Shown here: positions 1 through 33,910 of the stretch, piece after piece | Numbering within the stretch: position 1 is the first letter of the stretch | How the letters are laid out: each line of letters starts with the position of its first letter | The notes under the pieces: model-generated | What the model was told of the DNA's origin: nothing | What the model saw: the letters and a program-made list of their open reading frames with translations, nothing else | The model's database searches: none | Made by a program: the position numbers and the translations under genes | DNA from: an uncultured Ignavibacteria bacterium | GTDB lineage: Bacteria > Bacteroidota > Ignavibacteria > UBA10030 > SZUA-254 | DNA length: 64,000 nucleotides | Assembly (NCBI GenBank): GCA_963724215.1 | Contig: CAVRTZ010000013.1 | Location: 14,877-78,876, forward strand | Direction of reading: 5' to 3'

Positions 1-2680
1 CAGGGAGTCAGACACCCTCGAATCAGGGCAAGGATTTTGGATAAAATTTGGTTCTGCAGAAACGGTAATAGTTGGCGGTTTGCAGAATTTCAGTAGCTCG
101 ATCAATCTCCAGACGGGTTGGAATCTCGTCGGTTCAATCTCTACTCCGATCGCGATAGGCAGTGTTCGAACCGTTCCCCGGGGCATTGTTGTGTCGGGCT
201 ATTATTGGTTTCATCCAGATTCTGGGTACAAATCGGTAGACACCTTGAAACCAGGGGTGGGGTATTGGGTGAAGCTGAGCCAATCTGGTTCGATGGTCAT
301 GAATACGACGAATGTACCATGTCTTGGGGCGCCGACGATTACCTATGGTGGGAAAGTATACACCACCACACAGATCGGGGATCAGTGTTGGTTGCAGGAA
401 TATCTTGATCTCGGAACGATGATTCAAGGGAACCAGGAAGCTTCGGATAATGACACCATTGAGAAATATTGCTACCAGAATAATCCCGCCAATTGTTCGA
501 CTTATGGCGCGTACTACCAATGGAATGAAGCGATGGCATACGTTACAGTGAACGGTGCCGGTGGGATTTGCCCGTCTGGTTGGCATCTCCCGACATCTGA
601 AGAATATGAAACCTTAAAGTCGACCGTCGATGGTGATGGAAATAGCTTGAAAGAAGTTGGGCAGGGGACCGCAAGCGGTGCGGGAACAAACACTACGGGA
701 TTCTCCGCGCTCCTTTCGGGTTTCAGCCGATCTAATAGTTTCAATAGTCTCGGTTACTTCACCTACCTATGGACATCCACCGAAGGTGTTGACCCTGGCG
801 TGGACGCCCGCTACCTAGCCCTGCTCAGTACAATAAGTAGAATAGATTTCAACTATGAGGAAAAGAGTACTGGATTCAGTGTCCGCTGCCTCCGTAATGT
901 GGGCGCTCCCCCGAATGCTCCGGCAATCCTCACACCAGCCAATAATGATACAGGGGTGTCCACGTTAGTCCCTCTCGCGTGGTCATGTGACGATCCTGAC
1001 GGCGATGTCCCCAGATATGAGGTTTTCTTCGGAACGGATAACCCACCCGTAGCGAGGGTATACTCGAATATAGATACGACGAACATACTTCACGGCAGGT
1101 TGGATAATAACACGACATATCACTGGCGAATTGTTGCCCACGACGGCCATGGCAATTCCATGTCGGGCCCCATCTGGAGTTTCAGAACGGAAACATTTGG
1201 GGTCCCCTGCCCCGGTACGCCAGTGGTTGATCATGCCGGGAGGTCCTATAATAGCATCAAAATTGGCGATCAATGTTGGTTGAAAGAGAACCTCGACATT
1301 GGGGAGATGATACCGGGCACCGATACCTCTAAGGATAACGGAGTGATCGAAAAGTATTGCTACAACAATGACACTGCAAACTGCACCAGCAATGGTGGAT
1401 TATATTCCTGGAATGAAGCGATGCAATATTCAAGCAGTGTCGGAGGTCAAGGGCTCTGTCCGGATGGATGGCACCTGCCGACGGGGGCCGAATATGATAC
1501 CCTCATCTCAGTTACGAATCTTGACGGTAATTCTTGGAAAGCCATTGGTCAGGGATGGGATGATGGCGCAGGAACAAATACGACCGGTTTCACCGCGTTA
1601 CTCTCGGGTTGGCGCTCCTTTGAGGGGAGCTTTCTCAATTCAGGCTTATTCACCCATTTTTGGAGTTCAACCGGAGACGATGACGCCGGTGTGGATTACG
1701 TGACTCTTTATGCCCACGCCAACAACGTCAGTATTTGGCCCCATTCCATTAGAAGTACCGGGTTTTCCTTGCGATGTATAAAAAACTCAGGCGCTCCTCC
1801 TAATCCACCGTCTACACCCTCCCCCGCAGAGGGTGATACGGCGTCATTCACGTCCGTCATCCTTCAATGGAGTTGTGAGGATCCCGATGGCGATTCGTTA
1901 ATCTACGATCTCTATTTTGGGACAATAAATCCTCCTACTTCGAAAGTGTATTCGAATTTGGAAACTGAGAGTCAGAGCCTTACCGGGCTGACCAATTCCA
2001 CTACCTACTACTGGAGAGTCATCGTTAATGATGGTCACGGTAATTTTACAACAGGCACCACGTGGAGCTTCAGGACGGGGGGACAGTTTGGTCTCCCTTG
2101 TCCAGGTTCACCAACTGTGGATTATGCGGGTAGAACATACAACACCGTCCAAATCGGTGATCAATGTTGGTTGAGGGAAAATCTCGATGTCGGGGCGATG
2201 ATCCCGGGCGCATATCTTACGTTCGATGAGGGGGTACTCGAGAAATACTGCTATGATGACGATCCGGCAAACTGTACTGCCTACGGTGCTCTTTACTTGT
2301 GGGGTGAGGCCATGAAATATAGTAATGCGCCGGGTGCCCAGGGGATCTGTCCGACAGGTTGGCACATACCAACGTTAGAGGAATTCGATTCTGTACGCTC
2401 AGTGGTGATGTACGATGGGAATGCTTTGAAAGCACTGGGCCAAGGAACCGGGGTTGGATCAGGAACGAACACGAGTGGATTCACAGCATTGATCGCAGGA
2501 AGACGAGACAACTTCGGCTACTTTCTGGAATTTGGTCAGCACAGCGAATTCTGGAGTTCGACGAAAGTCGATTTGGAGGGGGCTCACAGCGTAGGCTTGG
2601 ATCAATTAGATGGCGAGATTTCTGTCACTAATCACGACTTCAACTATTTCGGATTCAGTGTGCGCTGTATAAAAGATTAA
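1..2680 (+). CDS. Secreted surface protein, 5'-partial: N-terminal GWN/GYWxK module followed by 3 x (FISUMP domain + Fn3-like linker)
   Basis: The frame of ORF 80..2680 stays open back to nt 2 (..SDTLESGQGFWIKFGSAETV..), so the gene starts upstream of the window. Three copies of GDQCWLxENLD..EKYCYxNDxANC..YGxLYxWxEAM..CPxGWH[LI]PT..GFS[VL]RC[LI][RK] match the Fibrobacter succinogenes major paralogous (TIGR02145-type) pattern as I remember it. They alternate with Fn3-like segments (L.WSCxDPDGDxxxYxxxFGTxNPP..YxWR..DGHGN). Confidence 0.8.
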   Translation, partial: RESDTLESGQGFWIKFGSAETVIVGGLQNFSSSINLQTGWNLVGSISTPIAIGSVRTVPRGIVVSGYYWFHPDSGYKSVDTLKPGVGYWVKLSQSGSMVMNTTNVPCLGAPTITYGGKVYTTTQIGDQCWLQEYLDLGTMIQGNQEASDNDTIEKYCYQNNPANCSTYGAYYQWNEAMAYVTVNGAGGICPSGWHLPTSEEYETLKSTVDGDGNSLKEVGQGTASGAGTNTTGFSALLSGFSRSNSFNSLGYFTYLWTSTEGVDPGVDARYLALLSTISRIDFNYEEKSTGFSVRCLRNVGAPPNAPAILTPANNDTGVSTLVPLAWSCDDPDGDVPRYEVFFGTDNPPVARVYSNIDTTNILHGRLDNNTTYHWRIVAHDGHGNSMSGPIWSFRTETFGVPCPGTPVVDHAGRSYNSIKIGDQCWLKENLDIGEMIPGTDTSKDNGVIEKYCYNNDTANCTSNGGLYSWNEAMQYSSSVGGQGLCPDGWHLPTGAEYDTLISVTNLDGNSWKAIGQGWDDGAGTNTTGFTALLSGWRSFEGSFLNSGLFTHFWSSTGDDDAGVDYVTLYAHANNVSIWPHSIRSTGFSLRCIKNSGAPPNPPSTPSPAEGDTASFTSVILQWSCEDPDGDSLIYDLYFGTINPPTSKVYSNLETESQSLTGLTNSTTYYWRVIVNDGHGNFTTGTTWSFRTGGQFGLPCPGSPTVDYAGRTYNTVQIGDQCWLRENLDVGAMIPGAYLTFDEGVLEKYCYDDDPANCTAYGALYLWGEAMKYSNAPGAQGICPTGWHIPTLEEFDSVRSVVMYDGNALKALGQGTGVGSGTNTSGFTALIAGRRDNFGYFLEFGQHSEFWSSTKVDLEGAHSVGLDQLDGEISVTNHDFNYFGFSVRCIKD

Positions 2681-2886
2681 AATGGTCGATCAGACCGCCG
2701 AATTCCCAAAGGCAGGGATAATCCTTCCCCCGACAAAATACTGTCCGAAAACACAGACCGTTGTTCGTGCGCATCAGTGTGGAACGCTGATGGGATCCCA
2801 CAAATATCTGAATCAGTGTGTTTTATTTTGGGTTCTGTTAACTGTCGTGTTAACACCGGGTCCTCACTGCACCCCCCTGAAATCGC

Positions 2887-3773
2887 TCAGGAATTATCTT
2901 CTTCAATATTTAAATCTGCCGGATAAAACAATCTCCATTCCTTGTCAAATACTGCTTCCTTCATTCCATGAGTTAGGTAAAAATCATAACTGAGGCCTAA
3001 TCTTTTTAATGGTTGTAGCTCGGCGGGAGAAAATATTCCAGTCCTTGTGAGATAAAACCCAATCGCTTGATGATACGGATACGCATAATCCAATTTAATG
3101 AGATATTCCGTCAGCTTGGTCATTGATATTCGTTTGCCGACACTCTTGTACGATTGGAATACATTCATCGATCCATTTGCGTAGGCTGGCCTCACAGTGA
3201 TATCTATAAGAGTTCTTTCGAGGTCGGTGTGTCGATGGATTGTCCGGTTCCGCCAAGCGTATCAACCACACCAAGTTGACCAGTATATTTCCCATTCAGC
3301 AATCTTACCTGGTAACCATCATACCCAAAAAAGCTTTTCGATTGGCGTTGCTGTGATTGGAAGGCTCGATCGATGTTAGCTTGATGGAGACTATTATCCT
3401 GTCTATTTTTTGGAGCTTGCTCTACATTTACATATACAATCTTGGGATTATCAATAGTACCATTAAGGTACAATGCGGTGAGGTGGGTGAAATAGGCTTT
3501 CGGTTTAAGTAGTATTGCCAGGTCGAGCACATTAGGGTGGTTCCATATATATCGTTTTTCGATCCTAACCCCTAATTGAAGTGTGATCAAGCCCAATAAG
3601 TTATTAGTGATCAGAAAGTCGATTATTCTGCGAATTGAGGATTTATTAGGTATTCGAAGGGTAAAGCGGTTAGATGAAAATAAAGACTTTAATTCTGTAT
3701 ATGTGAATATCTGTTTACCCTGGGCCTGGAGTAGGTTTATTAGAGAAGCTCTTTGCTGCTTGGTCATCTTCAA
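2887..3773 (-). pseudogene. AbiEi-family (type IV TA antitoxin-like, wHTH + AbiEi C-terminal domain) gene, split by one frameshift as assembled
   Basis: ORFs 3204..3773 and 2887..3195 are consecutive on the minus strand. Changing frame at about 3200-3215 reads ..TSKERTLIDITVRPAYANGSMNV.. This restores the S/T-x-ERTLxD..RP motif that I associate with AbiEi-family C-terminal domains. No adjacent AbiEii partner lies on this strand. Confidence 0.55.
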
Positions 3774-3791
3774 TCCCTCATCTCTGTTTGC

Positions 3792-3823
3792 AGTACCATG
3801 ATGTATATATACATCATGGTACT
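3792..3823. promoter_or_regulatory. Perfect 32-bp palindrome, candidate operator directly upstream of the minus-strand AbiEi-like gene
   Basis: agtaccatgatgtata|tatacatcatggtact is its own reverse complement. It lies 19 nt upstream of the ATG at 3773. Confidence 0.5.
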
Positions 3824-3906
3824 GAAACTGTCAATCCACGTCTTAAGGCTATGAAACTCAATAAAATACTCTTAAACGAGTAGAATTCGCGTATTATTTC
3901 ATGCTT

Positions 3907-3983
3907 TACACCCCTTTTACTCTTGAAATTCTGAACCGAATGTTATATAATATTACACTATACTGACCTTTTAGAGGGGTGTA
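3907..3983 (+). promoter_or_regulatory. Candidate abiEi promoter (TTGAAA-17 nt-TATAAT, 3923..3951) bracketed by a 9-bp inverted repeat
   Basis: TACACCCCT (3907..3915) and AGGGGTGTA (3975..3983) are reverse complements. The -35/-10-like hexamers lie between them, and the GTG start of abiEi is at 3986. Confidence 0.4.
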
Positions 3984-3985
3984 TC

Positions 3986-4793
3986 GTGCAAAAATATATA
4001 ACTGAATTAGGGCCAAAAGAAGCTGAATTTCTGTCCATCATGGCGAGTTCTGGTTCTGGGCAATTTGATATTGATCGGGCGATCGGTTATTGGGGTGGAG
4101 ACCGGATCGCATGGAAAAAGCTTCGCCATCTTGTGAAGAAGGGCTGGATATCAAGAATCGAGCGGGGTAAATACATGGTCATCCCTCTCGAAGCAGGGGT
4201 TAATCGCGCTTGGACGGAGGACCCTTATATCATTGCATCCACACTGGTTCAGCCTGCGGTCATTGCCTATTGGAGTGCAATTCGCCATTGGAATTGGACA
4301 GAGCAGATTCCGCGTGTTGTTTATATCCAAACAACCAGTAGGAAAAAGGAATCTGGGCGGGTTGTATTTGGTGTACATTATCAATTTGTCACTGTTACCA
4401 AGCGTAAATATTTTGGATGTATCAAAGAGTGGCTTAATGGGAGGGAGGTGTTGATAACCGACAAGGAAAAGACGCTCCTAGATTGTTCCGATGATGTCGA
4501 TAGGGCTGGGAGTATCGAAGAATTACTGAAGGCGGTTAATGCAGGGGTTCCGGAAATATCTTGGAAGAAATTAGATCAATATGCGCTTCGTTTCCCGAAA
4601 CCGCTCGGCAATGAAACGTCTGGGCTATCTAATCGAGAACTTAGGGATTCCGCTTCCAGAAGAAGCGGTTGAATTACTAAATTCTTGGAGATCTAGATTG
4701 AGTGCAGGCGTAGTTCCTCTCCAACCTGGTGGAAGGCGGGATGGTAAAATAAGCACGAGATGGCGTCTGCGTGTAAATGCGGTACTAAGATGA
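3986..4793 (+). pseudogene. abiEi: AbiEi antitoxin/transcriptional regulator (type IV TA), one frameshift near 4597 as assembled
   Basis: ORF 3986..4672 carries the wHTH part (..LVKKGWISRIERGKYMVIP..) and the core (..ITDKEKTLLDCSDD..). After ..QYALRF the conserved C-terminus NRSAMKRLGYLIENLGIPLPEEAVELL..WRLRVN continues in the frame of ORF 4581..4793. That frame's TGA overlaps the abiEii ATG (ATGA at 4790-4793). Confidence 0.75.
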
Positions 4794-5647
4794 TATCTGC
4801 TGATGAAATACGCCGCATTGCGGGTGCACTCAGTATCGACCCAAGGGTTGTTGATCATGATTATGTGATAGGTTGTTATTTGCATTATCTCGCAATTAAT
4901 TCTGATGTGCAAGAGTCATGGATATTTAAAGGGGGAACATCGTTACAGAAAAGCCATTTTGGCCTTTACCGTTTTTCTGAAGATCTCGATTTTACGTTAA
5001 GGTCTCCACTAACGGCTGATGGTGTTAAATATATTGCTGATCAAGCTAAACACGAACTTCAGCATTCAATCGGCATTCGGACGGATGAGGTCTCCACGCT
5101 TGTTGAGATGATGAATGATGATTATGGGAGAGAGTCGGTTGAGGTACGGATCTATTATCGAGGGCCCGGAGATTACAGAGGCTCCCCTCGATCAGTCCGA
5201 CTTCACCTGAGTGGAGATGAAATCGTGGTTTTCACTCCATTATCCAAAAGAATTATCCACAACTACTCGGATGCGGGCGATCTCCCATCGATTACACTGA
5301 AAACCTACTCACTGGAAGAGGTTCTTGTTGAAAAATTAAGGGCATTTTCTGGACAACGTAAATATGCGATCGCCCGTGATATTTTCGATATTCATTATTT
5401 ACTGACGAAGGGGGTAGATCGTGAGTCCTCGATCAAGGCCTTGAGGGATAAATGTGAATTCAAAGGGATAAAGGTCGACTCGATCAACACTACTTCCGTA
5501 GAATCAAGAAAAGCGGAATTCCGTGTTAGTTGGAATGATTCGCTTGCATATCTCCTTCCAGCCGAACTGAAAACTTCTTTTGACGACGCCTGGGATTCGT
5601 CGACTACCCTGCTTAAGGAAGCGGTGGAATACTATCAATCACACTGA
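4790..5647 (+). CDS. abiEii: AbiEii/AbiGii-family nucleotidyltransferase toxin (type IV TA)
   Basis: The start is taken at the internal ATG 4790 (ORF opens at 4760) because it overlaps the abiEi stop. The N-terminus is MISADEIRRIAGALSIDPRVVDHDYV. The NTase motif is FKGGTSLQK..RFSEDLDF. Confidence 0.8.
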   Translation: MISADEIRRIAGALSIDPRVVDHDYVIGCYLHYLAINSDVQESWIFKGGTSLQKSHFGLYRFSEDLDFTLRSPLTADGVKYIADQAKHELQHSIGIRTDEVSTLVEMMNDDYGRESVEVRIYYRGPGDYRGSPRSVRLHLSGDEIVVFTPLSKRIIHNYSDAGDLPSITLKTYSLEEVLVEKLRAFSGQRKYAIARDIFDIHYLLTKGVDRESSIKALRDKCEFKGIKVDSINTTSVESRKAEFRVSWNDSLAYLLPAELKTSFDDAWDSSTTLLKEAVEYYQSH

Positions 5648-5774
5648 GACATTTACACAGAAGATAGATGAGCCTTTTGAGCTGAGGTGATCATCCGCAT
5701 CGTTCTGCGAATCCGCGTTAATCCGCTGAGTGCAACAGCTATGTTAACAAGCAGCTCTTGCGAGGATATCGTGC

Positions 5775-5987
5775 ATGAAAAAACAGAATCTCAAATTCGA
5801 AGTTATTCCCGGTCGTGAAATGACCCCAGCCGAGGTCGATACGCTCGCGAGGCTTTTAGCTGAATGGTGCCTTCGAGACCTCAAATCAAAGCAGACTGAG
5901 AAAAAGAATCAGGTTAGACCATCGGCAGACCGGGGGGACTTAAAAGTAGGTTATAACCCCATTGCATCGCCCGATGGATCTTCATAG
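5775..5987 (+). CDS. Hypothetical small protein (70 aa)
   Basis: This is the only open frame in the 5.65-6.19 kb gap. No recognisable motif, so coding status is uncertain. Confidence 0.2.
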   Translation: MKKQNLKFEVIPGREMTPAEVDTLARLLAEWCLRDLKSKQTEKKNQVRPSADRGDLKVGYNPIASPDGSS

Positions 5988-6192
5988 CTTTCCGCAAGTC
6001 GATTCCGCCGATACTAACCTCTTGATCGCTCCTCCCTGATCAACTGGATGGTGCAGGCGGGATTTTAGTTTTGAAGGGGGGTGCCCCCCAGCTTCAAGAA
6101 CTGGTGGCTTTTAGTACCCCAGATGGTACCAGACACGTTTAATGAATCCTTAATTACACGTGGCTGTCGCTTCAGTCCTGAACGCGAAATAA

Positions 6193-8334
6193 CTATTTTA
6201 TTAAGACCATTTTCCTCATTACCCTGGAAGACTCGTGAGCAGATGATCTGTCTTGGGCCGTGAACCGGACAAAGTAGATGCCAGACGGGAAATGTGAACC
6301 GTCCCAACTGAACGAGTGTACACCACTGGGATATTCTCCCTTAATGGGTTCATCGATGACCTCCCCCAGAACATTATAAACCTCACAGACCACTCTTGAC
6401 GCCGAAGGAAGATCGAATCGAAAATATGTTATAGGATTAAATGGATTGGGATAGTTGTTCGAAAACGTAAACTCCCGGGGAATTGGAAAGACATCACCAG
6501 GTTGATCTATATCTGTAATCCCACCAGAAGTGGTCGAGAGAATTGTCCCATCTGAACCAGAGATCCAACCTCTGGTGTGATCAATAAAATGAACGCTGGA
6601 CAGCATGCTCCTTGAAGGGTTTGCCTGTTTGGACCAGGAGATACCTCCATTCGTCGTCGATAAGATGCGTCCCGTATGTCCCACGGCCCAGCCGGTCGTA
6701 TTATCGATGAAGAATACTGATACGAGCGCATTGAGGGTACCACTCGTGGCCGACAGCCAGGTTGTCCCACCATTGGATGTTCTGACGATCGTGCCGTTGC
6801 CTCCGACAGCCCACCCGTGTCCCGTATCCGAGAAAAAGATGGATTGAAGGGCTGGCACAAAACCTTGCATTTGCTCCGCCCAACTATTTCCGCCATTCGT
6901 GGTGTGGATAACCCAACCACCGTCACCAGCGGCCCACCCATGTAATGAATCGACAAAATGGACGTCATACAAGTCAAACGGGTCGGGACTGTATTGCTCC
7001 GTCCAGGTGGTGCCACCATCGACCGTCATTCTGATTGATCCCGAGGCTCCCACCACCCATCCCTGCTGTAAGCTCGTAAAATGGATTGCATGAACCAGAC
7101 CGATTCCCGGACTTTGTTGAGACCACGACACGCCGCCGTCGGTGGTCTTGGAAACCGATCCCGATCCCCACCCTCCGACATAACCGGTCAGGCTGTCGAG
7201 GAAATGAAGACAGGACCCGCCCGGAAGGCCGTGATCTGATTCAATCCACTGGGTGCCGTAATCCGTTGTCCTCAGTAGGACCCCATCGGGTCCGGCCGCC
7301 CATCCACGCCCGTCAGCAAACATCTGAATACTCGGTAACTCGGTGGTTGGTCCGTGGGATTGGAGTGTCCACGTGGTGCCCGCATCCGTCGTTCTGATGA
7401 TTGATCCGTTATCTCCTACTGCCCAGCCGGTACTCTCATCAGCGAAACGGATCGAGGTATAATAACCCGAGATCATATCTGACGCAGTGTCCCAGGTAGA
7501 ACCGCCGTCAGTCGTTCCCATAATCAAGCCTGATATCCCCGCCGCCCATCCCCGCAAGGAATCAACAAAATACACCGAACGCATATCTGGAGAAACACCA
7601 TCAGTGTTGCGTTCCCACGTGAGCCCACCATTTGAAGTCCGAAGCGTGGCTGCTATGCCCCATGCCCCGACTACCCAGACTTGATCGGGGCTGATAGCGT
7701 GGAGCGATTGCGGTATTCCGGCCTCAGGGGTAGGTTGGACCTGCCACGTCCCCCCGCTATTGGTGGTGTTGAGAATCCCGCGGCCGTCACCGAGAATCCA
7801 ACCAACAGTTGAACTTCCGAAACAGATTGAGTGAAGGGGGTCGAGACTTCCGATCGATTGCGATGTCCATGACCAACCCCCATCTGTGGTGATGGCGAGC
7901 GTCCCGGAAAGCCCGGTTATCCACCCAGTGTCTTGATTGATGAAAAATAGCGAAGATAGGTCGGGGAACACATTGTACGATTGCGTCGACCATATGACCC
8001 CGGCATTAGTGGTTCTAAGAATGATCCCGCTATCGCCTGCGATCCATCCATTGACCTCATCAACGAAATAAACAGCATTAAACGAGGCAACATACCCTTC
8101 AACGAGAGTGCGTACATCCCAGTCCGTTCCGCTATTGGTTGTATGAATGATGGTGCCAGAGCGGCCAACGGCGAATACGATTTGAGGGTTGATGGGAAAA
8201 ACCGATTTAAGTTGATTCGGCTGAGGTATTGGATTTTGCCATTCCCATCCTGGGCCCCCACTGACGGCATCAGTGATGGGGAGGAGAAGGAGCGGAAAAA
8301 TCCAGAAGCGCTTACCAAGTCGATGTAATTTCAT
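6193..8334 (-). CDS. BNR/Ycf48-like beta-propeller repeat protein with T9SS C-terminal sorting domain
   Basis: Many blades of type [ST]T[ND]GGxxW / TxDGGxTW. A signal-peptide-like MKLHRLGKRFWIFPLLLLPI starts at the internal ATG 8334 (ORF opens at 8403). The C-terminus is [30 protein letters not shown]. Confidence 0.8.
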   Translation of the reverse strand: MKLHRLGKRFWIFPLLLLPITDAVSGGPGWEWQNPIPQPNQLKSVFPINPQIVFAVGRSGTIIHTTNSGTDWDVRTLVEGYVASFNAVYFVDEVNGWIAGDSGIILRTTNAGVIWSTQSYNVFPDLSSLFFINQDTGWITGLSGTLAITTDGGWSWTSQSIGSLDPLHSICFGSSTVGWILGDGRGILNTTNSGGTWQVQPTPEAGIPQSLHAISPDQVWVVGAWGIAATLRTSNGGLTWERNTDGVSPDMRSVYFVDSLRGWAAGISGLIMGTTDGGSTWDTASDMISGYYTSIRFADESTGWAVGDNGSIIRTTDAGTTWTLQSHGPTTELPSIQMFADGRGWAAGPDGVLLRTTDYGTQWIESDHGLPGGSCLHFLDSLTGYVGGWGSGSVSKTTDGGVSWSQQSPGIGLVHAIHFTSLQQGWVVGASGSIRMTVDGGTTWTEQYSPDPFDLYDVHFVDSLHGWAAGDGGWVIHTTNGGNSWAEQMQGFVPALQSIFFSDTGHGWAVGGNGTIVRTSNGGTTWLSATSGTLNALVSVFFIDNTTGWAVGHTGRILSTTNGGISWSKQANPSRSMLSSVHFIDHTRGWISGSDGTILSTTSGGITDIDQPGDVFPIPREFTFSNNYPNPFNPITYFRFDLPSASRVVCEVYNVLGEVIDEPIKGEYPSGVHSFSWDGSHFPSGIYFVRFTAQDRSSAHESSRVMRKMVLIK

Positions 8335-8605
8335 TTCCTTCCAGATCGAAGCTTGGAGTGGGACTAATTGAGAAAGATTGGGAGCGGACCGAAATGAAGG
8401 CAAAGTGTTAATTTGCGAGTTCGAGAATTTCGGGTAATGTACAAATACGAGCGATTGATTTCAATTGTGTTCTCTCCCGAAGGAACACCATATCACCTCC
8501 ACGCCATCAAGATTAAATGCGGTTTTCGACAGAGGGGCGGTGCATGGAGGCATGAAGGCGGGAATCATCGATGCAAGGTGGGGGTGCTTTATTCAATGCA
8601 GTAGC

Positions 8606-8650
8606 ATCAGTCTGCAAAGCTGTTGCTCTATCCAGTTGAGCTACTGACGC
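8606..8650 (-). other. tRNA-like 5' half (acceptor strand, D-arm, anticodon-arm-like hairpin with UGC); no T-arm or 3' acceptor strand
   Basis: The minus strand reads GCGTCAG TA GCTC AACTGGATA GAGC A ACAGC TTTGCAG ACTGA TGC.. The D-arm is canonical and the anticodon stem has only 3 good pairs. The sequence that follows (..CTACTGCATTGAATAAAGCACCCCCACC..) cannot be folded into a T-arm or acceptor end. Confidence 0.35.
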
Positions 8651-8726
8651 GTAAGCAGTTCAAAGATATGAAAAACCGCGCCGATATTCAAGGAAATCAG
8701 CTCACTCCCTCTTTCGACATCGGACT

Positions 8727-10028
8727 TCACCCGATTCTCAACCGGTGGGTTGCCGCTATTCTCTCGACAACGGGCCGGGGGACACCGATCTCGCCGGCGA
8801 AGCGCGGCCAGAGAGAAACCGCCTCCTTCACCTGATCGAGTATCGCCGGGGCATGTTTGATCCCATACTGCCGGGACACCGACAGAAGGTCATCCTTCGT
8901 CAGCTCATCCCGTTTGCCGTTGACGGTCATCTGGTGTTGGTTTGTCCAGGGTCCCGCGGAATTGTACGCCCAGATGACATCGAACGCGGGGGCGAGCACC
9001 CATGCTCCGTCATGGGTCATCAGAAACGAAACGTTTTTAGTGTGGTCGTCCTGATTCCGGGCGATGATGTTGAATACCATCCGCCGGTACATCTCCGCGA
9101 GCGAGTCGTAGCCGAGTTGTACTTGCTGCATCGTCGAGAAGGCTTGTTCGTAACTGTGCGCTCCCGGCAGGTTGAAGTCGAAATGCGCCATCGCGCAGAG
9201 CGATTGCATGTGGATTTTTTCGTTGTTCGTGCCCCGGTCGAACCGGCGCGTCATGAAGTGGGCCCTTCCGTTCTCCTCGAAAAGCCGGCACGGGGACATC
9301 CGGATCCCGGCAGACAGGGCCATCCTGTGATAGGCGTACTCGATGCGGCCGTATCCTTTCGATGCTCCGACCGAGCGGTCCTCCACGCCGTCGAACTTCA
9401 TGATCCAGGGCTCAAATCCCGGAGGCGGCGTGACCTGACCCGACCGGACCTCGTTGGTCGAGGGGTTCCACGCGATGAGCGCCTTCGCGCGCGCGCCGCC
9501 CGCGGATGTTCCCACGCGGATGATGGTGTCGAGGGCGTCGGCGTCGTGCTTCAGGTTGACGAGCATCTCCGCCCGGTTATCCACCACGAGTTGCGCCAGT
9601 TCGACCATTCTGCCGATCTCGATCGTGACGGACCTGGTCTCCCTCGGCCGGATGGCGGGCTTGAACTCTAGCGCCCCCATCCCGCGGGTCCCGATGTAAC
9701 AGAGGCGTTCGACCGGCGAGAAATCTTCCCTGCTTCGTCCCTCGCGCGCCAGCCACGCATCGATCAGGGTGTTGCCGAATTTATCGGGGAGGGAGTCGGC
9801 CAGCAACCCGGGAAGACCGTAATAGGTATTCCGATCGAGTCCGGGAAACGAAAATATTCCGGGCTTGCGCGGAAGGACCAGCGGCGAGATGTCGAATCCT
9901 TCCCGGAGGAATGAGGGGGCATATTCGAACGATGCCAGGCCGCGGTCGGTGTCCCACGCCACGGCCCCAACCTGCCTGCCCCAGAGCAGCACCTTCGCTG
10001 CGGAAACGCGTTTTCCCGCCATGGTCAT
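8727..10028 (-). CDS. hipA: HipA-family serine/threonine kinase toxin (type II TA)
   Basis: Motifs seen: ..GLPGLLADSLPDKFG.., ..VGTSAGGARAKA.., ..ARNQDDHTKNVSF.. The start is chosen at ATG 10028, which overlaps the hipB stop (ATGA). The ORF itself opens at 10202. Confidence 0.85.
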   Translation of the reverse strand: MTMAGKRVSAAKVLLWGRQVGAVAWDTDRGLASFEYAPSFLREGFDISPLVLPRKPGIFSFPGLDRNTYYGLPGLLADSLPDKFGNTLIDAWLAREGRSREDFSPVERLCYIGTRGMGALEFKPAIRPRETRSVTIEIGRMVELAQLVVDNRAEMLVNLKHDADALDTIIRVGTSAGGARAKALIAWNPSTNEVRSGQVTPPPGFEPWIMKFDGVEDRSVGASKGYGRIEYAYHRMALSAGIRMSPCRLFEENGRAHFMTRRFDRGTNNEKIHMQSLCAMAHFDFNLPGAHSYEQAFSTMQQVQLGYDSLAEMYRRMVFNIIARNQDDHTKNVSFLMTHDGAWVLAPAFDVIWAYNSAGPWTNQHQMTVNGKRDELTKDDLLSVSRQYGIKHAPAILDQVKEAVSLWPRFAGEIGVPRPVVERIAATHRLRIG

Positions 10029-10360
10029 GAACCTTTGGGCTTCGCCGGTTTGCGTCCCCTGCTCCCGGAGGCTTCCTGCCGGATCTTTCCGCCCATCCGG
10101 GCAAGTTCGAGCGGGCTGATCCCCGGTTCCGGAAGGAGAAGGCCGACCTGATCGAGCTTTCCCAGCGCCCGCAGGACACGGATGAAATTCCCGAGGGTGC
10201 ATCCCCGTCCGTTCTCGAGCCGGTTGATGACGATCCGGCTTACGCCGGCCGACTGCGAAAGCTGTACCTGGGTTTTATTCTGGTTGAGCCGCTCCTGCCT
10301 GACCCTGCTTCCGAGTGTCCGGAGAATCCCGGCATCGTTCACCCTTGAAATTACCGTCAT
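10025..10360 (-). CDS. hipB: HipB-like XRE-family HTH antitoxin
   Basis: The HTH reads ..RQERLNQNKTQVQLSQSAGVSRIVINRLENG.. It lies immediately upstream of hipA and is translationally coupled to it. Confidence 0.75.
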   Translation of the reverse strand: MTVISRVNDAGILRTLGSRVRQERLNQNKTQVQLSQSAGVSRIVINRLENGRGCTLGNFIRVLRALGKLDQVGLLLPEPGISPLELARMGGKIRQEASGSRGRKPAKPKGS

Positions 10361-10431
10361 ACGTTATCCTTTTCCCCGATTCAATTTTAAGATACGATTT
10401 AAACGTGTGATAATCAAATATATGGTATTAT

Positions 10432-10474
10432 ATATATAGCATAATACGATATATTCCTTATATATGCTATAAAT
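10432..10474. promoter_or_regulatory. Inverted repeat in the AT-rich hipBA upstream region, candidate HipB operator
   Basis: ATATATAGCATA (10432..10443) and TATGCTATAAAT (10463..10474) are inverted repeats. The core TATAGCATA/TATGCTATA is perfect and the 12-bp arms match at 11/12, with a 19-bp spacer. The repeat lies 70-115 nt upstream of the hipB ATG. Confidence 0.4.
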
Positions 10475-10687
10475 ATATTACCTATAAGTGGAAATATAAA
10501 CTGAATTTGCTCTCGAGCCACCTCCCGGATTACAGAACCTGGGTCCCTTCAGCACTTGTCCCTGACCCTCAATATTTCGTTGAAACGAAAGGATTCAGGG
10601 TCTGTTGATTACCACCGGTATTGTGTCTATGCTGTACCAAGTGTTCTATGATCGGATGATCGGGTCAACATAAGGGAGGGATCGGAT

Positions 10688-12745
10688 ATGAAATTCTGGA
10701 AAATTGTCTTCTGTGTCCTCGGATTGGTCGTGCTCCGGGAGAGTGGCGCCGCGCAGGTCCATGCACAATGGATCGCCTCGACGGACAGCCTTTCGGCCTC
10801 GGCGATCACCGTCGATCGCAGCGGGAATGTGTACGTCGCCGGGGGCATGTTCCGCGGGACAAGCGGATACAACATCACCCTTGTGAAATACGATACCGCC
10901 GGCGTCCCGCAATGGATGAGCGAGTTTAACGGCATCGGCGACGACGCGGATGTCGCGACCGCGATCGCGCTCGATACGAGCGGAAACATCTTCGTCACCG
11001 GCTACAGTTTCCGAGGCCCGGCGGCGTTGAATTTTGAAATGGTCACGATCAAATTCACCCCCGCCGGCGATTCGCTCTGGGTCCGTCGTTTCAACGGGAC
11101 GGGCGCGCAGGATGACCGCGCATTCGCGCTCGCGGTCGACACCGCGGGAAATGCCTACGTGGGAGGGTACCTCAACAACATCTCCCTGGGCAATGTCTAT
11201 GGCCAGGACTATATCACCATCAAGTACGCCCCCGACGGGACCCAGCAGTGGGCGGCGCAGCTCGATCTTTTCGAGGCTTGCGTGAACGCCCTGGCGGTCG
11301 ACCCGGCCGGGAACGTCTACATCACCGGGGCGGGAACCGATGGCACCCCCGCCAACACCGGCATCACGGCGAAGTACGGCCCGGGCGGCGGTCTGCTCTG
11401 GTCGAAAGGCACCCCCGCCCAAATCGCCACCGGCCTCGTCCTCGATGACAGCGATAATGTGTACGTCACCGGGTACGGCCAGGGAGTAACAGGATTTTAC
11501 GATTTCGTGACGATGAAATACGACAGCGCGGGGACGGAACAGTGGACGAGCCGGTATACCGGGCCGGTCGATGAAGACGACAAGGCGAGGGGCATCGTCG
11601 TCGATAAAAATCACAATGTGTATGTAACGGGTGAGGCGAGTGTTATGCCGGGATCGTACGTCAGGGATTACGCAACCGTTAAATATGGGATCGACGGGGA
11701 TTCGCTCTGGGCAAAACTGTATGATGGCGCAGGGTCGATCGACAAGCCCGTCGACATCGCCATCGATTCCGCCGGGAGTGTCTATGTCACGGGGAGCAGT
11801 GTGGGTTCGTTCCTGGAGGGTAGTTCGAACGATTACGCCACGATCAAGTATGGCGCGAACGGCGATTCGCTCTGGGCCCGGCGGTACAACCCGGCAAACC
11901 TGGAAGACCAGGCGGTGGCGGTCGAGGTTGACCTCCGGGGCAATGTCTACGTCACGGGGGTGATCCAGACGAGTTTCACCTCCGGTGGCTCCGGCACGAT
12001 CAAATACTCACAGGCGGTCGTGCCTGCCGCCTGGAGCACCGAAGTGCCGGCCGGCGGCGCGGGCTCAACGACGCTCTTCGGCGGGACGGGCCTGACGTTC
12101 ATCGGCGACGTGACGGTGCCGGATTCCGTGACCGTGTTCTACTATCTCGAATCGCCGGATCCCGGAGAGTTCCCTTCGGGCATCGTCGGGATCGGCGATT
12201 ATTTCTGGCGGGTCTTTAACGACGGGACGATCTTCACGAACGGGTATATGCGCCTTTCAACCGAGGACCTGGTTGGAGTTACGGTCGGAGGGTGCGGTGC
12301 GTGCCTGGTATGGCTGAAGCGCGACAATGCCGGAGACGCCTGGGAGAACATCGGCGGGAGCCTCGACGGGACGCTCGACAGCGGGACGCTGACGAGCACG
12401 ACCCCGTTCGGATCGTTCTCGGAGTTCGCCATCGGATCGACCGACAGCACGACCCTCGACGTTGAAGAGGGGACCGGGCCCTATGCGTTCGAGCTCGCGC
12501 AGAACTACCCCAACCCGTTCAATCCGGTGACGAGCCTGCAGTACGCTCTTCCGGAAAACGCTCACGTCCGATTGAATGTTTTCAACGTCCTGGGAGAGGT
12601 CGTGGCGACACTGGTCGATGGCGAACAGGAGGCGGGGCGCAGGGTGGTTCAGTGGGACGCCGCTCACCTTCCGAGCGGGGTGTACTTCTCGAGGTTGACC
12701 GCCGGTCCGTTGATGCAGACCGGAAAGATGGTCCTCATGCGGTGA
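10688..12745 (+). CDS. SBBP-repeat beta-propeller protein with T9SS C-terminal sorting domain
   Basis: Signal peptide MKFWKIVFCVLGLVVL. About ten repeats of D.[SA]GNVYVTG..(D)..T.KY...G...W. The C-terminus is [32 protein letters not shown]. Confidence 0.8.
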   Translation: MKFWKIVFCVLGLVVLRESGAAQVHAQWIASTDSLSASAITVDRSGNVYVAGGMFRGTSGYNITLVKYDTAGVPQWMSEFNGIGDDADVATAIALDTSGNIFVTGYSFRGPAALNFEMVTIKFTPAGDSLWVRRFNGTGAQDDRAFALAVDTAGNAYVGGYLNNISLGNVYGQDYITIKYAPDGTQQWAAQLDLFEACVNALAVDPAGNVYITGAGTDGTPANTGITAKYGPGGGLLWSKGTPAQIATGLVLDDSDNVYVTGYGQGVTGFYDFVTMKYDSAGTEQWTSRYTGPVDEDDKARGIVVDKNHNVYVTGEASVMPGSYVRDYATVKYGIDGDSLWAKLYDGAGSIDKPVDIAIDSAGSVYVTGSSVGSFLEGSSNDYATIKYGANGDSLWARRYNPANLEDQAVAVEVDLRGNVYVTGVIQTSFTSGGSGTIKYSQAVVPAAWSTEVPAGGAGSTTLFGGTGLTFIGDVTVPDSVTVFYYLESPDPGEFPSGIVGIGDYFWRVFNDGTIFTNGYMRLSTEDLVGVTVGGCGACLVWLKRDNAGDAWENIGGSLDGTLDSGTLTSTTPFGSFSEFAIGSTDSTTLDVEEGTGPYAFELAQNYPNPFNPVTSLQYALPENAHVRLNVFNVLGEVVATLVDGEQEAGRRVVQWDAAHLPSGVYFSRLTAGPLMQTGKMVLMR

Positions 12746-12759
12746 TCGCGCTCCTGACC

Positions 12760-14079
12760 CTACGAATAGTACATCACGAACCTCGTCTGTTCACCGGGCG
12801 CGCTCTCAAGCGAAAACTCGAAATTGTGCTGCCGCAGGATTTCCTGGACGAGGGTGAGCCCGATCCCCTGGCCGTTCTCCTTGGTGCTGAAGAAGGGGGT
12901 GAAGAGCTGCACTCGAACCTCTTCGGTGATACCCGGCCCCGTGTCCTCGATCGAAACCGCGTTCCGCCCGTTCGTTCGTCCAAGTCGGATCGTGATCGTC
13001 CCATCGGACCCAATCGCCTCCATCGCGTTTTTCAGGACGTTGAGAAACACCTGCTCCATCTGCTGGGCGTCCATCAACACGGGGTCCGGCTCCGCTCCGG
13101 CTCCAGCCCCATCTTCCCAGGAGAGCGCGATCCTTCTCCGGGCGAGTTCGGCGTGCAGCAGCCTCGCGATGTTCTTCAGCGGGACGCGCACGTCGCCGAA
13201 GGCGCGCCGCGGGGGCGGCAGCCGCAGGATGTCCGCGAATCCCTTCATGAACGCGTTCAGGTGGTCGGTCCTCGCGATGGCCACGGTGAGGGCTGTTTCG
13301 AAATCGGCGCGGTCCTCCGCGCGCAGTTGCTGTCCGTAATGAAGGCACGAATGCAGGAGGGAATTCGCCGCCCCGAGTGAATTGTTCACCTCGTGCGACA
13401 GCATCCGGATCAGTTTCTCGTACGCCGCCCGCTCGTTCTTCCTCAACTCCTCCGTCAACTCTTCGAAAAGATAAAACGTCCGCGAATGTCCCCGGTCGAG
13501 GAAACTCGATTTCCGGCAGAGGACCTTTCGCGTGCCGCGGAGGATGAAAATGGCCGCTTCCCCCGGATCCAGCCGGTCCATCTGGGTCGCGAACGGGACG
13601 CCGAGGTCGGTGGTCTTCTTTCCCCCGAGTGTCCCGTTCGAAGCCTGGAAGAGGGAGTGCGCCGAGGGGTTCGCGTACGAAATCGTCCCCTGGTGGTCGA
13701 GGATGATGATGGCCGACGGTGAGACCTGGAGGATCTTGTCCAGGAAATAGTGCTGCTCCTGGATCGTCAATCTTTCGGTGCGGAGTGTGTCGACCATCTG
13801 GTTGTAGACGCCGACCAGACGGTCCATCTCGGGCGGGCCCGTCGCGCGCAGCCGGGTCGAGAAGTCCCTCTCCCGCAGGAATTCCACACTCGATGCGATC
13901 AGTTCGAGGGGGCGGAAGAGGCCGCGGAAGATGGCGAGGGCGGCGAAGAAGGACAGCAACAGGAACAGCTCGAGGGCGACGAGCCAGATCCGGTCGTCCC
14001 GGAGGAGCCACACGATGACCGAGGCGAAGACGAGGTGGACGGCGAGCAGGTAGAGGGTGAACGCGCGGCGCAGGGTCAC
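12760..14079 (-). CDS. Sensor histidine kinase (2 TM, PAS-like, HisKA, HATPase)
   Basis: H-box LSHEVNNSL, N-box NVLKNAMEA, G-boxes DTGPGI and GQGIGL. GTG 14079 overlaps the stop of the upstream regulator (GTGA). The ORF opens at 14388, but that part overlaps the regulator gene. Confidence 0.8.
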   Translation of the reverse strand: MTLRRAFTLYLLAVHLVFASVIVWLLRDDRIWLVALELFLLLSFFAALAIFRGLFRPLELIASSVEFLRERDFSTRLRATGPPEMDRLVGVYNQMVDTLRTERLTIQEQHYFLDKILQVSPSAIIILDHQGTISYANPSAHSLFQASNGTLGGKKTTDLGVPFATQMDRLDPGEAAIFILRGTRKVLCRKSSFLDRGHSRTFYLFEELTEELRKNERAAYEKLIRMLSHEVNNSLGAANSLLHSCLHYGQQLRAEDRADFETALTVAIARTDHLNAFMKGFADILRLPPPRRAFGDVRVPLKNIARLLHAELARRRIALSWEDGAGAGAEPDPVLMDAQQMEQVFLNVLKNAMEAIGSDGTITIRLGRTNGRNAVSIEDTGPGITEEVRVQLFTPFFSTKENGQGIGLTLVQEILRQHNFEFSLESAPGEQTRFVMYYS

Positions 14080-15457
14080 GACGGGATTCCGAACTTCTCG
14101 AGCCTCCGGTAGAGGGCGGCCCGGCTCAGGCCGAGGCTCTCGGCCACCCTGCTGACGTTTCCCTTGAACTCCTTCATACACATCTCGATCATCGCCTGCT
14201 CCATCTCCTCGAGGGTCATCGTGCCGGCCGCCGGCAGGCCGTTCCGCGCAAGCCCGGTCGCGTCCATTTTTCCCGGCAGGCTGAAATCCTCGACCTCGAG
14301 GACGTCCCTGGAGGTCATCATCACGGCCCGCTCGACGGTGTGTTTCAGCTGGCGGATGTTGCCGAGCCAGGGGAGTTGCCGGAGCCATTCGAGGGCCTTC
14401 TCGCTCATGGTGAGGCCGCTCTTCCTGTAGACGCCGGCGCTGTTGCCGAGGAAGTGGAGGGCGAGCAGCGGAATGTCGTCCCGTCGTTCGCGCAGGGGAG
14501 GGACGTGGAGGGCGATGAGGTTCAGTCGATACAGCAGGTCCTCGCGAAACTCCCCGCGCGCGATCAGGTCAGCGAGGTCGGCGTTCGTGGCGGAGATCAC
14601 CCGCACGTCGACCTTCCGCGACTGGCTCGATCCGAGGACTTCGTACGTCCGGTCCTGGAGCACCCGGAGCAATTTCACCTGGCACGCGCCGTCGAGGTCG
14701 CCGATTTCGTCTAAAAAGATGGTCCCCCCGTCGGCGATTTCGAACCGGCCCTTCCTGTTCTCCCGCGCGTCGGTGAAGGCGCCCCTGACGTGGCCGAACA
14801 TCTCGCTCTCAAAAAGGGGTTGCGAGATCCCCCCGAGGTTGACCTTGATGAACGGTTTGTCCCTCCGCGCGCTGTTGCGGTGGATCGCCTCGGCGATCAA
14901 TTCCTTCCCGGTCCCGCTTTCGCCGGTGATCAGGACGGTGGCGTCGGTGGGGCTCGACTTTCCCGAGGATCTCGAGGATGCGCAGGAGTTTCGGGTCGCG
15001 GCCGACAATCCCGCCAAAGTCGTATTTCGAGTCGAGCTCCCCGCGGGTGAGGGGAGGGGCCGACGATTCCCTCGAGATTTCCGCAAGCCCGAGGGTGGTC
15101 CGTATCGAATGCAGCAGCTCCTCGTTCGTCCACGGCTTGGTGATGAAATCAGCGGCGCCCGGCCTTCATCCCCTGGACGGCGAGGGAGATCGACCCCCAG
15201 GCCGTCATCAGGATCACCGGCACCGCGGGATGGAGAGACTTGATCCTGCGCAGGAGGGAGAGTCCCTCGTCCCCCGACGTGCTCCGGGAATAATTCATGT
15301 CCTGGATGACGAGCCGGACCGGGCCGTTCTTCATCTCGTCGATCGCGCGTCCCGGCGAGGTGATCCCGCGGGACGGATAACCGGCCTGCTTCAGGAGGAG
15401 GGAGAGGGATGCGACGATCGATGGGTCATCGTCGACGATCAGGATTACGCCGTCCAT
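14076..15457 (-). pseudogene. NtrC-family sigma54-dependent response regulator, at least 2 frameshifts as assembled
   Basis: Receiver domain (MDGVILIVDDDP..), AAA+ domain (GESGTGKE, GAFTDA, IFLDEIGD) and Fis-type HTH (..SRAALYRRLEKFGI). The frame breaks at about 15150, where removing one G from GCCGGGCGCC restores ..GMKAGAADFITKPW.. It breaks again at about 14950 (..ILGKV | SPTDATVLITGESG). Confidence 0.8.
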
Positions 15458-15588
15458 ACGTGCTTTCAAACTAACCGAAACGGACTCGAAAAGCAAGGGT
15501 TTCCCGGCGGCCCCGCCGCTGTCGGAGCCATCGCGGGACCCGCCCCCTCCCGACACGGCCGGATCCCCGCGCAATACCGCTGCGGCGC

Positions 15589-18043: not shown

Positions 18044-18056
18044 CGTGGGGTCCTCC

Positions 18057-18723
<667 letters not shown>

Positions 18724-18739
18724 TGCGCGTTCCTCCGGT

Positions 18740-19985: not shown

Positions 19986-19997
19986 GAGGGGAATACG

Positions 19998-20013
19998 TTC
20001 AAGGATCGTGCCA
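19998..20013 (-). promoter_or_regulatory. Candidate sigma54 (-24/-12) promoter in front of the exporter cluster
   Basis: The minus strand reads TGGCACGATCCTTGAA, against the consensus TGGCACG-N4-TTGCW. The -24 element and the spacing fit, but the -12 GC is GA. It ends only about 12 nt before the adaptor ATG. Confidence 0.3.
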
Positions 20014-20198
20014 GAACGGATCGGCGTGTTCCGTTCGGTTTCACCGCCGGTGGGACGGTGAGTGTCCGCAATCGGACAGCGGTGTCCGGTTCCGACGGGT
20101 GCGGTTGATGCCGCTTTGGAACTCACCCCGGTGTTGCCTACCTTGATACGTCATCAGAGCCCCATCACCCCCGCATGCTTGCAACCGAAGTACCGTCG

Positions 20199-21545: not shown

Positions 21546-21631
21546 TTGGAACTCAACCCGCCGTTGCCTGCATTTCCGCGTCACCGGTCACGGTACGCCG
21601 CTTCCCACAGTCACGCTCAAAGGACCCGACC

Positions 21632-22228: not shown

Positions 22229-22299
22229 GACGCCGTTCGCCGGAATTTGACATCCGACCGCCATTTGATATCTTGATGAACACCCAGCGACGCTGACCC

Positions 22300-22845: not shown

Positions 22846-22931
22846 TCCGGGTCTGCCGCCCGCCGCGCGGAATCTTGAGGGCGATTTTTGTATCTTTGGG
22901 TGTCCACGCCCCCAACATCGACTGAATCGCC

Positions 22932-33762: not shown

Positions 33763-33877
33763 GCGCCGCTGCCTGAATCCCCGCAGTGCCGTTCACCCGG
33801 CGCGACGCGGGGGAAGAAAGCGGGTGCTGCATCCCGGCGTTTCGAGAGGAAACGTCCGGGGCCGGGGTTTCCCGAAC

Positions 33878-33910
33878 GAGGGGTCCGTCCAACGGACCCC
33901 TCTTTTTTTT
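33878..33910 (+). terminator. Rho-independent terminator after the adhesin gene
   Basis: GAGGGGTCCG-tccaa-CGGACCCCTC followed by T8. Confidence 0.8.

Follow-up and report, generated by a model that had tools for sequence, protein, structure and literature searches.

A low-GC block that meets high-GC DNA at a truncated tRNA-Arg gene: a probable tRNA-associated island in a Bacteroidota/Ignavibacteria-like contig

The canonical signature of an island integrated into a tRNA gene is an intact regenerated tRNA gene together with a displaced fragment, which is the 3′ piece in 3760 of the 3919 catalogued islands (PMC4383910). A 5′ fragment occurs in only 159 islands and must lie upstream of the regenerated gene, and crossover sites centred on the anticodon form the commonest class, with 2083 of the 3919 islands (PMC4383910). 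Here, the island criteria of Islander (Hudson, Lau & Williams 2015, PMC4383910) were applied to a stretch of 64,000 nt (the window), at whose left end a low-GC block is joined to high-GC DNA. A 5′ tDNA fragment oriented like the target gene was found upstream of the block, and the block has both host-unlike composition and variable presence among relatives. The locus resembles the 5′-fragment, anticodon-centred islands of that catalogue in its anomalous composition, its accessory cargo, the placing of the island 3′ of a 5′ tRNA fragment and the break at the anticodon loop. It differs from them in that the defining regenerated tRNA and tyrosine integrase are not visible, the second end is outside the window and the identity block of the anticodon loop is not conserved. 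We consider it probable that the block is a real island that a Bacteroidota/Ignavibacteria-like bacterium of ~64% GC acquired horizontally into its chromosome, at a tRNA-Arg hot spot.

Windowed GC, GC3 and tetranucleotide checks all separated the block from the rest of the window, which confirms the composition switch reported in a preliminary description of this DNA. The hand counts of single lines given there were also right (33.3, 46.7, 76.7 and 63.3%, the last having been put at 65%). GC is 0.480 in 1-8726 versus 0.641 in 8727-64000, and GC3 is 0.41-0.53 in the genes of the block and 0.75-0.94 in those outside, differences of 16 points for GC and ~35 points for GC3. The 1-kb windows inside the block have a mean GC of 0.479 (maximum 0.565), and those outside a mean of 0.642 (sd 0.032, minimum 0.521). 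In tetranucleotide usage, the first two 4-kb pieces correlate with the rest of the window at -0.04 and 0.23, against 0.89-0.97 elsewhere, and the block shows no sign of amelioration. GC within the block is uneven, with 36-45% around the AbiE genes and values reaching 58% within the BNR gene. The visible part of the putative island is taken as 1-8618, with its left end outside the window. It had been called an AT-rich 8.7-kb block; the low GC stands, but it means 48%, and a bounded unit of 8.7 kb does not hold, since the leftmost reading frame (FISUMP), free of stops from nt 2 on, is still open at nt 1 and runs off the left edge, making ~8.6-8.7 kb a minimum size.

A two-segment maximum-likelihood fit placed the change point at ~8740 for the whole window and at 8720-8770 for the first 20 kb only, coinciding with the stop codon of hipA. 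The switch had earlier been assigned to 8404-8726; exact placement by GC within 8335-8726 fails because intergenic DNA of the host is AT-rich too (38% GC in 10361-10687). Hence, the tRNA homology break at 8618/8619 is the better estimate of the boundary.

What is left of a tRNA-Arg(ACG)-type gene is a 5′ stump at 8619-8650 on the minus strand, comprising the 5′ strand of the acceptor, the D-arm and the 5′ strand of the anticodon stem. Over 8619-8652 (minus strand), 32 of 34 bases are identical to the 5′ end of tRNA-Arg(ACG) in a related locus, L161, where this tRNA gene follows the closest hipA relative (84% amino acid identity), 1.4 kb further downstream; this arrangement links the stump to the hipA side of the join. 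The 21-nt D-arm is present once in the window, with 0 expected. The homology stops at the anticodon loop, at tRNA position ~31/32, with a loose tRNA-like resemblance on to ~8597, and neither past the break nor upstream was any significant similarity found. The anticodon loop reads TTTGCAG and not CTACGGA, so the stump has not kept the block of identity that a displaced fragment should show. The Rfam tRNA model gave 16.6 bits for 8597-8650 (minus strand), under the gathering score of 29. The truncated tRNA-like sequence that had been noticed at the join, with its missing 3′ end towards the block, is real but lies under gene-finder thresholds. ARAGORN reported no tRNA gene in the 64 kb, so there is no intact regenerated copy within the window, and the 3′ part of tRNA-Arg is likewise absent from all of it. 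Between the hipA stop and the stump is a spacer of 76 nt (8651-8726, minus strand) with TTGAAT-17 nt-TATCTT and, ~12 nt upstream of tRNA position 1, a TAnnTTTG box (TATCTTTG) that was read directly from the sequence. A consensus scan gave no score to these elements, which may represent the promoter of the stump.

The 3′ direction of the stump points into the block, placing the island on the 3′ side of a 5′ fragment. The earlier description took this to be precisely the arrangement that tRNA-targeted islands should have; a tRNA end fragment is indeed there in the required orientation, but it fits only the 5′-fragment minority (159/3919). On that reading, the regenerated tRNA gene would need to be located past nt 1, at the far end, as would the integrase. 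In agreement with the earlier remark that no integrase is visible, domain and profile searches detected no tyrosine integrase, and likewise no transposase, in any ORF of 1-8726, the visible part of the block, where stretches with no assigned gene are at most 545 nt long. An att-like direct repeat was not found in the window. In the proposed mechanism, the island would meet host DNA inside the tRNA-Arg(ACG)-type gene, leaving just ~32 nt at the promoter-proximal 5′ end of that gene. Crossover by a tyrosine integrase in or beside the anticodon loop is the most likely way to reach this state; the island would bring the 5′ part of a tRNA, and the host's own 5′ fragment would stay upstream of the island. 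Alternatively, a standard 3′-side island may later have lost the 3′ half of the tRNA and the adjacent integrase by deletion. A more specific version of the island reading appears unlikely, namely that the block is the end of a large mobile element that carries T9SS-secreted surface proteins and AbiE between low- and high-GC Ignavibacteria-like Bacteroidota, supplying the 5′ half of tRNA-Arg by anticodon-loop crossover.

The predicted cargo consists of one AbiEi/AbiEii module, an orphan AbiEi-like gene and two secreted or surface repeat proteins. Defence or toxin-antitoxin modules together with surface proteins are typical island content, which counts for an island. Two AbiE-type loci had been proposed, and PADLOC does not bear this out, the second being the orphan, split AbiEi-like gene. 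In the paired locus, abiEi (3986-4793, plus strand; PADLOC AbiEi, Pfam AbiEi_4), the putative antitoxin and repressor, is frameshifted near 4590-4670: an ORF at 3986-4672 covers profile positions 2-185 (PADLOC AbiEi, 1.9e-49) and an ORF in another frame at 4581-4793 covers positions 186-242 (1.3e-10). The following abiEii (4790-5647, plus strand) is intact and is predicted to encode the nucleotidyltransferase toxin of a type IV toxin-antitoxin or abortive infection system (Pfam PF08843, 6.1e-32; PADLOC AbiEii, 6.7e-55); its 285-aa product is on record for the deposited contig of 189,195 nt. The start of abiEii overlaps the end of abiEi at 4790-4793, in the AbiE-type gene order. The orphan gene (2887-3773, minus strand) is split over two frames (3204-3773 and 2887-3195), which match PADLOC AbiEi positions 3-132 (E 2.7e-5) and 154-244 (E 2.4e-5); it has no Pfam or NCBIfam match and no AbiEii partner.

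Characterised abiE systems are autoregulated: AbiEi binds an inverted repeat that serves as operator in their promoter. An inverted-repeat search found a 40-nt palindrome (3788-3827), a candidate AbiEi operator, in the promoter region from which the two AbiEi genes diverge, ~160 nt upstream of abiEi; its two 20-nt arms are 95% complementary with no spacer. The locus is like AbiE of Lactococcus and Streptococcus agalactiae in having bicistronic, overlapping abiEi-abiEii genes, strong profile matches and an upstream palindrome, and differs in that abiEi is frameshifted in this assembly and the system is a putative one known from profile matches.

The first surface-protein gene (2-2680, plus strand) is 5′-truncated by the window edge, and in its product a ‘GWN...GYWVK’ module at the N terminus is accompanied by three FISUMP (Fib_succ_major) domains and two Fn3-like spacers (PF09603, 4.4e-87 over 3 stretches; TIGR02145, 2.6e-103), with no Por tail or T9SS sorting domain. 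The second (6193-8334, minus strand) encodes a Ycf48/BNR-repeat beta-propeller with a signal peptide (PSII_BNR, 2e-50 over 6 stretches) and a C-terminal T9SS sorting domain (Por_Secre_tail, PF18962, 1.1e-6; TIGR04183, 3.9e-7), which makes it predicted T9SS cargo. The best relatives of the FISUMP protein are 50-53% identical and come from Bacteroidota/Ignavibacteria MAGs of 39-57% GC, and those of the BNR protein in the database are just 39-41% identical. A related low-GC FCB donor had been suggested, and the nearest relatives do belong to lower-GC Bacteroidota/Ignavibacteria, but at an identity of only ~40-53%. A Por tail and a GWN/GYWxK module shared with the high-GC part had also been pointed out. 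The former is present on the BNR protein and the latter on the FISUMP protein, but neither resembles its host counterparts more closely than those in other FCB genomes.

Synteny with three genus-level relatives (L158, L159 and L160; 78-81% nucleotide identity) breaks off at 12770-12801, at the stop of a histidine kinase gene. Everything to the left of this kinase (12760) is non-syntenic in the relatives, and the block is missing from the syntenic position in all three; downstream of the kinase each relative has different content, which in L158 includes another FISUMP gene. In the core relatives L164 and L165, hipBA occupies another site, between YchF and UDG. Moreover, bog run X1 contains a population 96-99.6% identical over 20.4-64 kb and almost none of 1-20.4 kb. 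These comparisons indicate that the left end, at least 20 kb, is a plasticity zone that differs between closely related populations. Word shares in X1 were ~6% for the block and 10% for 7900-9500 (1.6 kb across the junction), with 8727-18700 below listing level, and none of this shows block and host travelling together. X1 was the best of the indexed runs and contained just fragments of either side; none of these runs contained the source, and neither a read nor an independent assembly across the join was found.

The main competing explanation, which the preliminary description had left open beside an island, is that the block is DNA of a separate Bacteroidota/Ignavibacteria relative of ~48% GC from the same sample, misjoined to the end of a high-GC contig, as could result from a chimeric long read or from a wrong path taken through the graph where strains vary and the contig broke. 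We regard it as rather unlikely. Like chimeric metagenome contigs formed between genomes, this one changes composition abruptly and without amelioration close to one end of what is visible (tetranucleotide correlation with the host ~0), and neither mobility genes nor an att repeat are visible. The block runs past the window edge and may be long, its proteins have no close relatives, the nearest being in lower-GC genomes, and a separate organism would suit the block fragment in X1, which is 100% identical where host DNA is 96-99.6% identical. Contigs are also prone to break and misjoin in variable regions like this, and the many frameshifts are visible quality problems of the assembly. On the other hand, such contigs differ from this locus, where no repeat is shared at the join and the genes on both sides are intact: towards the block, the join occupies an intergenic spacer and is 284 nt upstream of where an intact gene starts, and on the other side it lies within a tRNA gene, a place that a random chimeric read would be very unlikely to hit. 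tRNA genes make up an estimated ~0.1% of a genome, and with a target of 75 nt a random misjoin would rarely land in one. A k-mer misjoin through a shared tRNA should yield a full-length hybrid tRNA, whereas here the similarity just stops. Matches across the join are short and exact only, the longest being 20 nt and inside the BNR gene (7131-7150 / 41684-41703), which is not long enough to mislead a long-read assembler; apart from such motif-sized matches of ≤20 nt, neither direct nor inverted repeats connect the two sides, and the junction itself has no shared repeat that could have been collapsed. The 189,195-nt contig deposited in NCBI/ENA carries genes of both sides. From the join within this one contig, its position inside a tRNA gene, the lack of a collapsible shared repeat and the variability of the region in relatives, we infer that the join existed in a cell and favour an acquired island.

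It is very unlikely that the left 20 kb, while real, arose by several independent, non-site-specific acquisitions and deletions (hipBA, SBBP, AbiE, surface genes), with the stump a relic of an unrelated deletion lying at the boundary by chance: hipBA relatives do occur in differing contexts, content downstream of the kinase varies by relative, the GC spread within the block suggests more than one origin, no integrase is seen and the anticodon loop is not conserved, but the composition change point and the tRNA break are within ~100 nt of each other, and one event is simpler than two independent ones.

A real join would make this a further tRNA-associated island, here carrying secreted surface proteins as well as defence modules, in a little-studied Bacteroidota/Ignavibacteria-like lineage of high GC from bog or soil, and the island may belong to the uncommon 5′-fragment class of tRNA integration. 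If it is an artefact, there is a misjoin in a deposited 189-kb contig, relevant to users of that genome. Either outcome is ordinary and leaves current understanding unchanged.

On the high-GC side, the first genes are hipA (8727-10028, minus strand; HipA_C 3.8e-49, Couple_hipA) and hipB (10025-10360, minus strand; HTH_3, TIGR03070), which overlap by 4 nt (ATGA) at 10025-10028 and have high-GC codon usage. Their products of 433 aa and 111 aa agree with public gene calls, and by domains and gene order hipBA is a predicted type II toxin-antitoxin pair. The clustering of AbiEi/AbiEii, the orphan AbiEi-like gene and hipBA in a region variable among close relatives recalls defence islands and plasticity zones rich in toxin-antitoxin genes, from which this locus differs in having only three modules. 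Still within the non-syntenic zone, a domain search identified a high-GC gene for a surface protein that combines an SBBP beta-propeller and a Por tail (10688-12745, plus strand). The last DNA syntenic with the genus-level relatives is the conserved cluster at 12760-20016 (minus strand), which encodes an NtrY-like histidine kinase, a sigma54 response regulator, two FtsX/MacB proteins, an ABC ATPase and an HlyD-like protein. Several genes of this cluster are frameshifted in the present assembly.

Base composition switches abruptly near the left end of the window, from a GC content of 0.480 over 1-8726 to 0.641 over 8727-64000, and the optimal two-segment change point lies at ~8740 over the entire window and at 8720-8770 when the first 20 kb alone is used, a position coinciding with the stop codon of hipA (8727). 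In 1-kb windows, mean GC is 0.479 within this low-GC block and 0.642 outside it (sd 0.032, minimum 0.521). Moreover, GC3 is 0.41-0.53 for the genes of the block and 0.75-0.94 for genes outside, and when 4-kb pieces are compared with the remainder of the window by tetranucleotide content, the first two correlate at -0.04 and 0.23, against 0.89-0.97 elsewhere. All three measures thus bear out the composition switch reported in the preliminary description, whose four hand counts of GC were right to within two points. Host intergenic DNA can match the block in AT-richness, since the spacer separating hipB from the SBBP gene (10361-10687) has 38% GC although it lies inside the high-GC part.

The leftmost ORF of the block (2-2680, plus strand) is without a stop from nt 2, thus this gene and the block extend past the window edge. 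It encodes a protein with three FISUMP (Fib_succ_major) domains, and the relatives recovered by scanning genome and metagenome contigs are all ≤53% identical. It is followed by an orphan AbiEi-like gene divided between two frames (2887-3773, minus strand), abiEi with a frameshift close to its 3′-end (3986-4793, plus strand), an intact abiEii (4790-5647, plus strand) and a Ycf48/BNR propeller gene with signal peptide and T9SS C-terminal domain (6193-8334, minus strand). The orphan AbiEi-like gene and abiEi are oriented divergently, and in the gap between them sits a near-perfect 40-nt palindrome (TTGCAGTACCATGATGTATA / TATACATCATGGTACTGAAA, 3788-3827), a candidate operator for AbiEi autoregulation. 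No mobility gene is visible in the block, and as the longest unassigned stretch is ≤545 nt, the visible block cannot conceal an integrase, in agreement with the earlier remark that none could be seen. By blastn the block matched no known plasmid or phage, and searches for att-like direct repeats, for a duplicate of the tRNA stump described below and for the 3′ half of that stump found none.

Within the 64 kb, no tRNA was detected by ARAGORN or by Rfam at gathering thresholds, and a permissive Rfam search gave a tRNA of 16.6 bits at 8597-8650 on the minus strand. The closest relative of the window's hipA (P0242, 84% amino acid identity) was found on a 3.1-kb ENA contig, L161, with the gene order hipB, hipA, PepSY_TM gene and an intact tRNA-Arg(ACG). 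At window positions 8619-8652, 32 of 34 bases match the 5′-end of this tRNA, covering the acceptor 5′ strand, the entire D-arm and the 5′ strand of the anticodon stem, and similarity ceases at the anticodon loop. Past the break, local alignment scores against the remainder of the tRNA or the L161 flanks equal the shuffle mean, the upstream flanks are likewise unrelated, and the 3′ part of an L161-type tRNA-Arg is absent throughout the window. An acceptor 3′ strand apparent in the Rfam alignment (5/7 pairs) is within chance by our estimate. Taken together, the match, its end at the anticodon loop and the absence of a 3′ part from the window show that the stump (8619-8650) is a true 5′ remnant of a tRNA-Arg gene. 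It is linked to hipA and its side of the join, and its missing 3′-end faces the block, as first described. The anticodon loop reads TTTGCAG in the stump and CTACGGA in the intact gene. The 76-nt spacer between hipA and the stump holds TTGAAT-17-TATCTT and a TAnnTTTG box, which may represent the former tRNA promoter.

In the Islander definition, a tDNA island combines an intact regenerated tRNA with a displaced cognate fragment and a tyrosine integrase, and a 5′ fragment must be upstream of the regenerated gene (PMC4383910). Among its 3919 islands, 3′ fragments were found in 3760 and 5′ fragments in only 159, and anticodon-centred sites are used by 2083 (PMC4383910). The geometry of the block fits the 5′-fragment, anticodon-site minority; however, the visible block is without an integrase, there is no intact tRNA within the 64-kb window, and the stump's loop differs from that of the intact gene, which counts against a clean site-specific event. 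We therefore liken the block to a tDNA island, as which it would work, but stop short of counting it among the proven ones. With integration of the 5′-fragment, anticodon-site type, an integrase together with an intact tRNA-Arg would be expected beyond nt 1; the same appearance would result from a standard island whose tRNA 3′ half and adjacent integrase were later deleted.

For abiEii, abiEi, the SBBP gene, hipB, hipA and the kinase gene, the exact products are all recorded on one 189,195-nt NCBI/ENA contig, and hence the join was not created by cutting out the window. Frameshifts relative to homologues affect the ABC ATPase, both FtsX genes, the regulator, the HlyD-like gene, the catalase and both AbiEi genes, and their scatter suggests a long-read assembly. 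As they occur on both sides of the join, their density does not discriminate between the two sides. The conserved efflux/two-component cluster (14079-19985, minus strand) carries at least 10 frameshifts compared with intact homologues in two syntenic relatives, L158 and L160 (ABC ATPase 1, first FtsX/MacB 3, second FtsX at least 2, sigma54 regulator 2, HlyD-like 1); amino acid identity within segments is 70-96%, the indels are single-base and mostly in G/C runs, a pattern that looks like consensus error of long-read assembly and not like decaying genes. Frameshifts extend to the core part of the contig, since the catalase gene (33786-35614, plus strand) is spread over three frames: 33786-34661 encodes profile positions 1-195, 34829-35614 encodes positions 256-382 together with Catalase-rel, and the section between these lies in another frame. 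A PKD-repeat protein of 1953 aa with a T9SS tail (27901-33762, plus strand, GC3 0.94) is intact across 5.8 kb despite the frameshifts elsewhere.

The preliminary description had left a genomic island and a chimeric join as two readings, and this two-way interpretation is partly supported. We consider that the block is probably genuine acquired DNA, an island located at a decayed tRNA-Arg. A chimera, in which block and host were wrongly joined during assembly, we retain as a distinctly less likely explanation. It would be in keeping with the entire absence of amelioration, the lack of any visible mobility gene or att repeat, the continuation of the block beyond the window edge, where its full extent is out of view, and the tendency of assemblies to break and misjoin in variable regions. 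A misjoin would, however, have had to fall within a tRNA gene, the classic integrase target and by our estimate ~0.1% of a genome, and on the block side in a spacer between genes, with 284 nt separating it from the start of an intact gene. Sequences common to both sides are short exact matches only, the longest being 20 nt in the BNR gene (7131-7150 / 41684-41703), with none at the junction itself, and an identity of 34 nt cannot cause a misjoin in an assembly of the long-read kind. A k-mer (de Bruijn) chimera via a shared tRNA was rejected because a full-length hybrid tRNA would be expected and is not seen. That the region is a patchwork of unrelated acquisitions, in which the tRNA relic is coincidental, appears improbable. 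Under any of these readings, the finding is an ordinary one.

Protein modules shared across the join appear uninformative as an argument for co-residence. The best match of the BNR T9SS tail in the nucleotide set is the host SBBP tail, at 47% identity, yet this is outscored by two database proteins, and for the N-terminal module of the block's FISUMP protein the host match ranks only ~12th. This 'GWN...GYWVK' module, covered by no Pfam family, is found again in the high-GC part, where two plastocyanin-like (Copper-bind) proteins carry it at their C-terminal ends with 40-42% identity (46805-47089 and 48321-48590), and also in a FISUMP protein beside the kinase in L158 (5946-6821).

Window positions 12770-20016, containing the kinase, the sigma54 regulator, two FtsX/MacB genes, the ABC ATPase and the HlyD-like gene, are collinear with three genus-level relatives, L158 and L159 (81% nucleotide identity) and L160 (78%), all of which diverge from the window precisely at the kinase stop codon, where L158 carries a different, higher-GC FISUMP gene and L160 phospholipid-synthesis genes. 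In two further loci, L164 and L165, whose YchF is 86% identical to the window's at the nucleotide level, hipBA is placed between YchF and UDG; thus the pair moves around within the lineage and, from its distribution among these sequences, is itself mobile. That hipBA pair is 72% identical in nucleotides to the window's, and in the corresponding stretch of the window (21626-24015) only ~700 nt separate YchF and UDG. Elsewhere, hipBA neighbours a type I restriction system (L162) or lies in a genome of 40% GC (L166).

Run X1, from a bog metagenome, contains a population with 96-99.6% identity to the window, whose coverage of 20.4-64 kb is even (37% of sampled words, gap-free pieces of 300-885 nt). 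Over 1-20.4 kb it gave only a 304-nt piece inside the FISUMP gene (100% identical) and a 261-nt piece inside hipA (98%), although such contigs are better evidence for presence than for absence. Neither X1 nor a second run, X2, both of which give short fragments only, contained a piece spanning 8.3-8.9 kb. The contrast in X1 coverage indicates that the entire left 20 kb is accessory relative to this population, a region much larger than the low-GC block, with its right boundary close to where GC drops at 20.0-20.5 kb.
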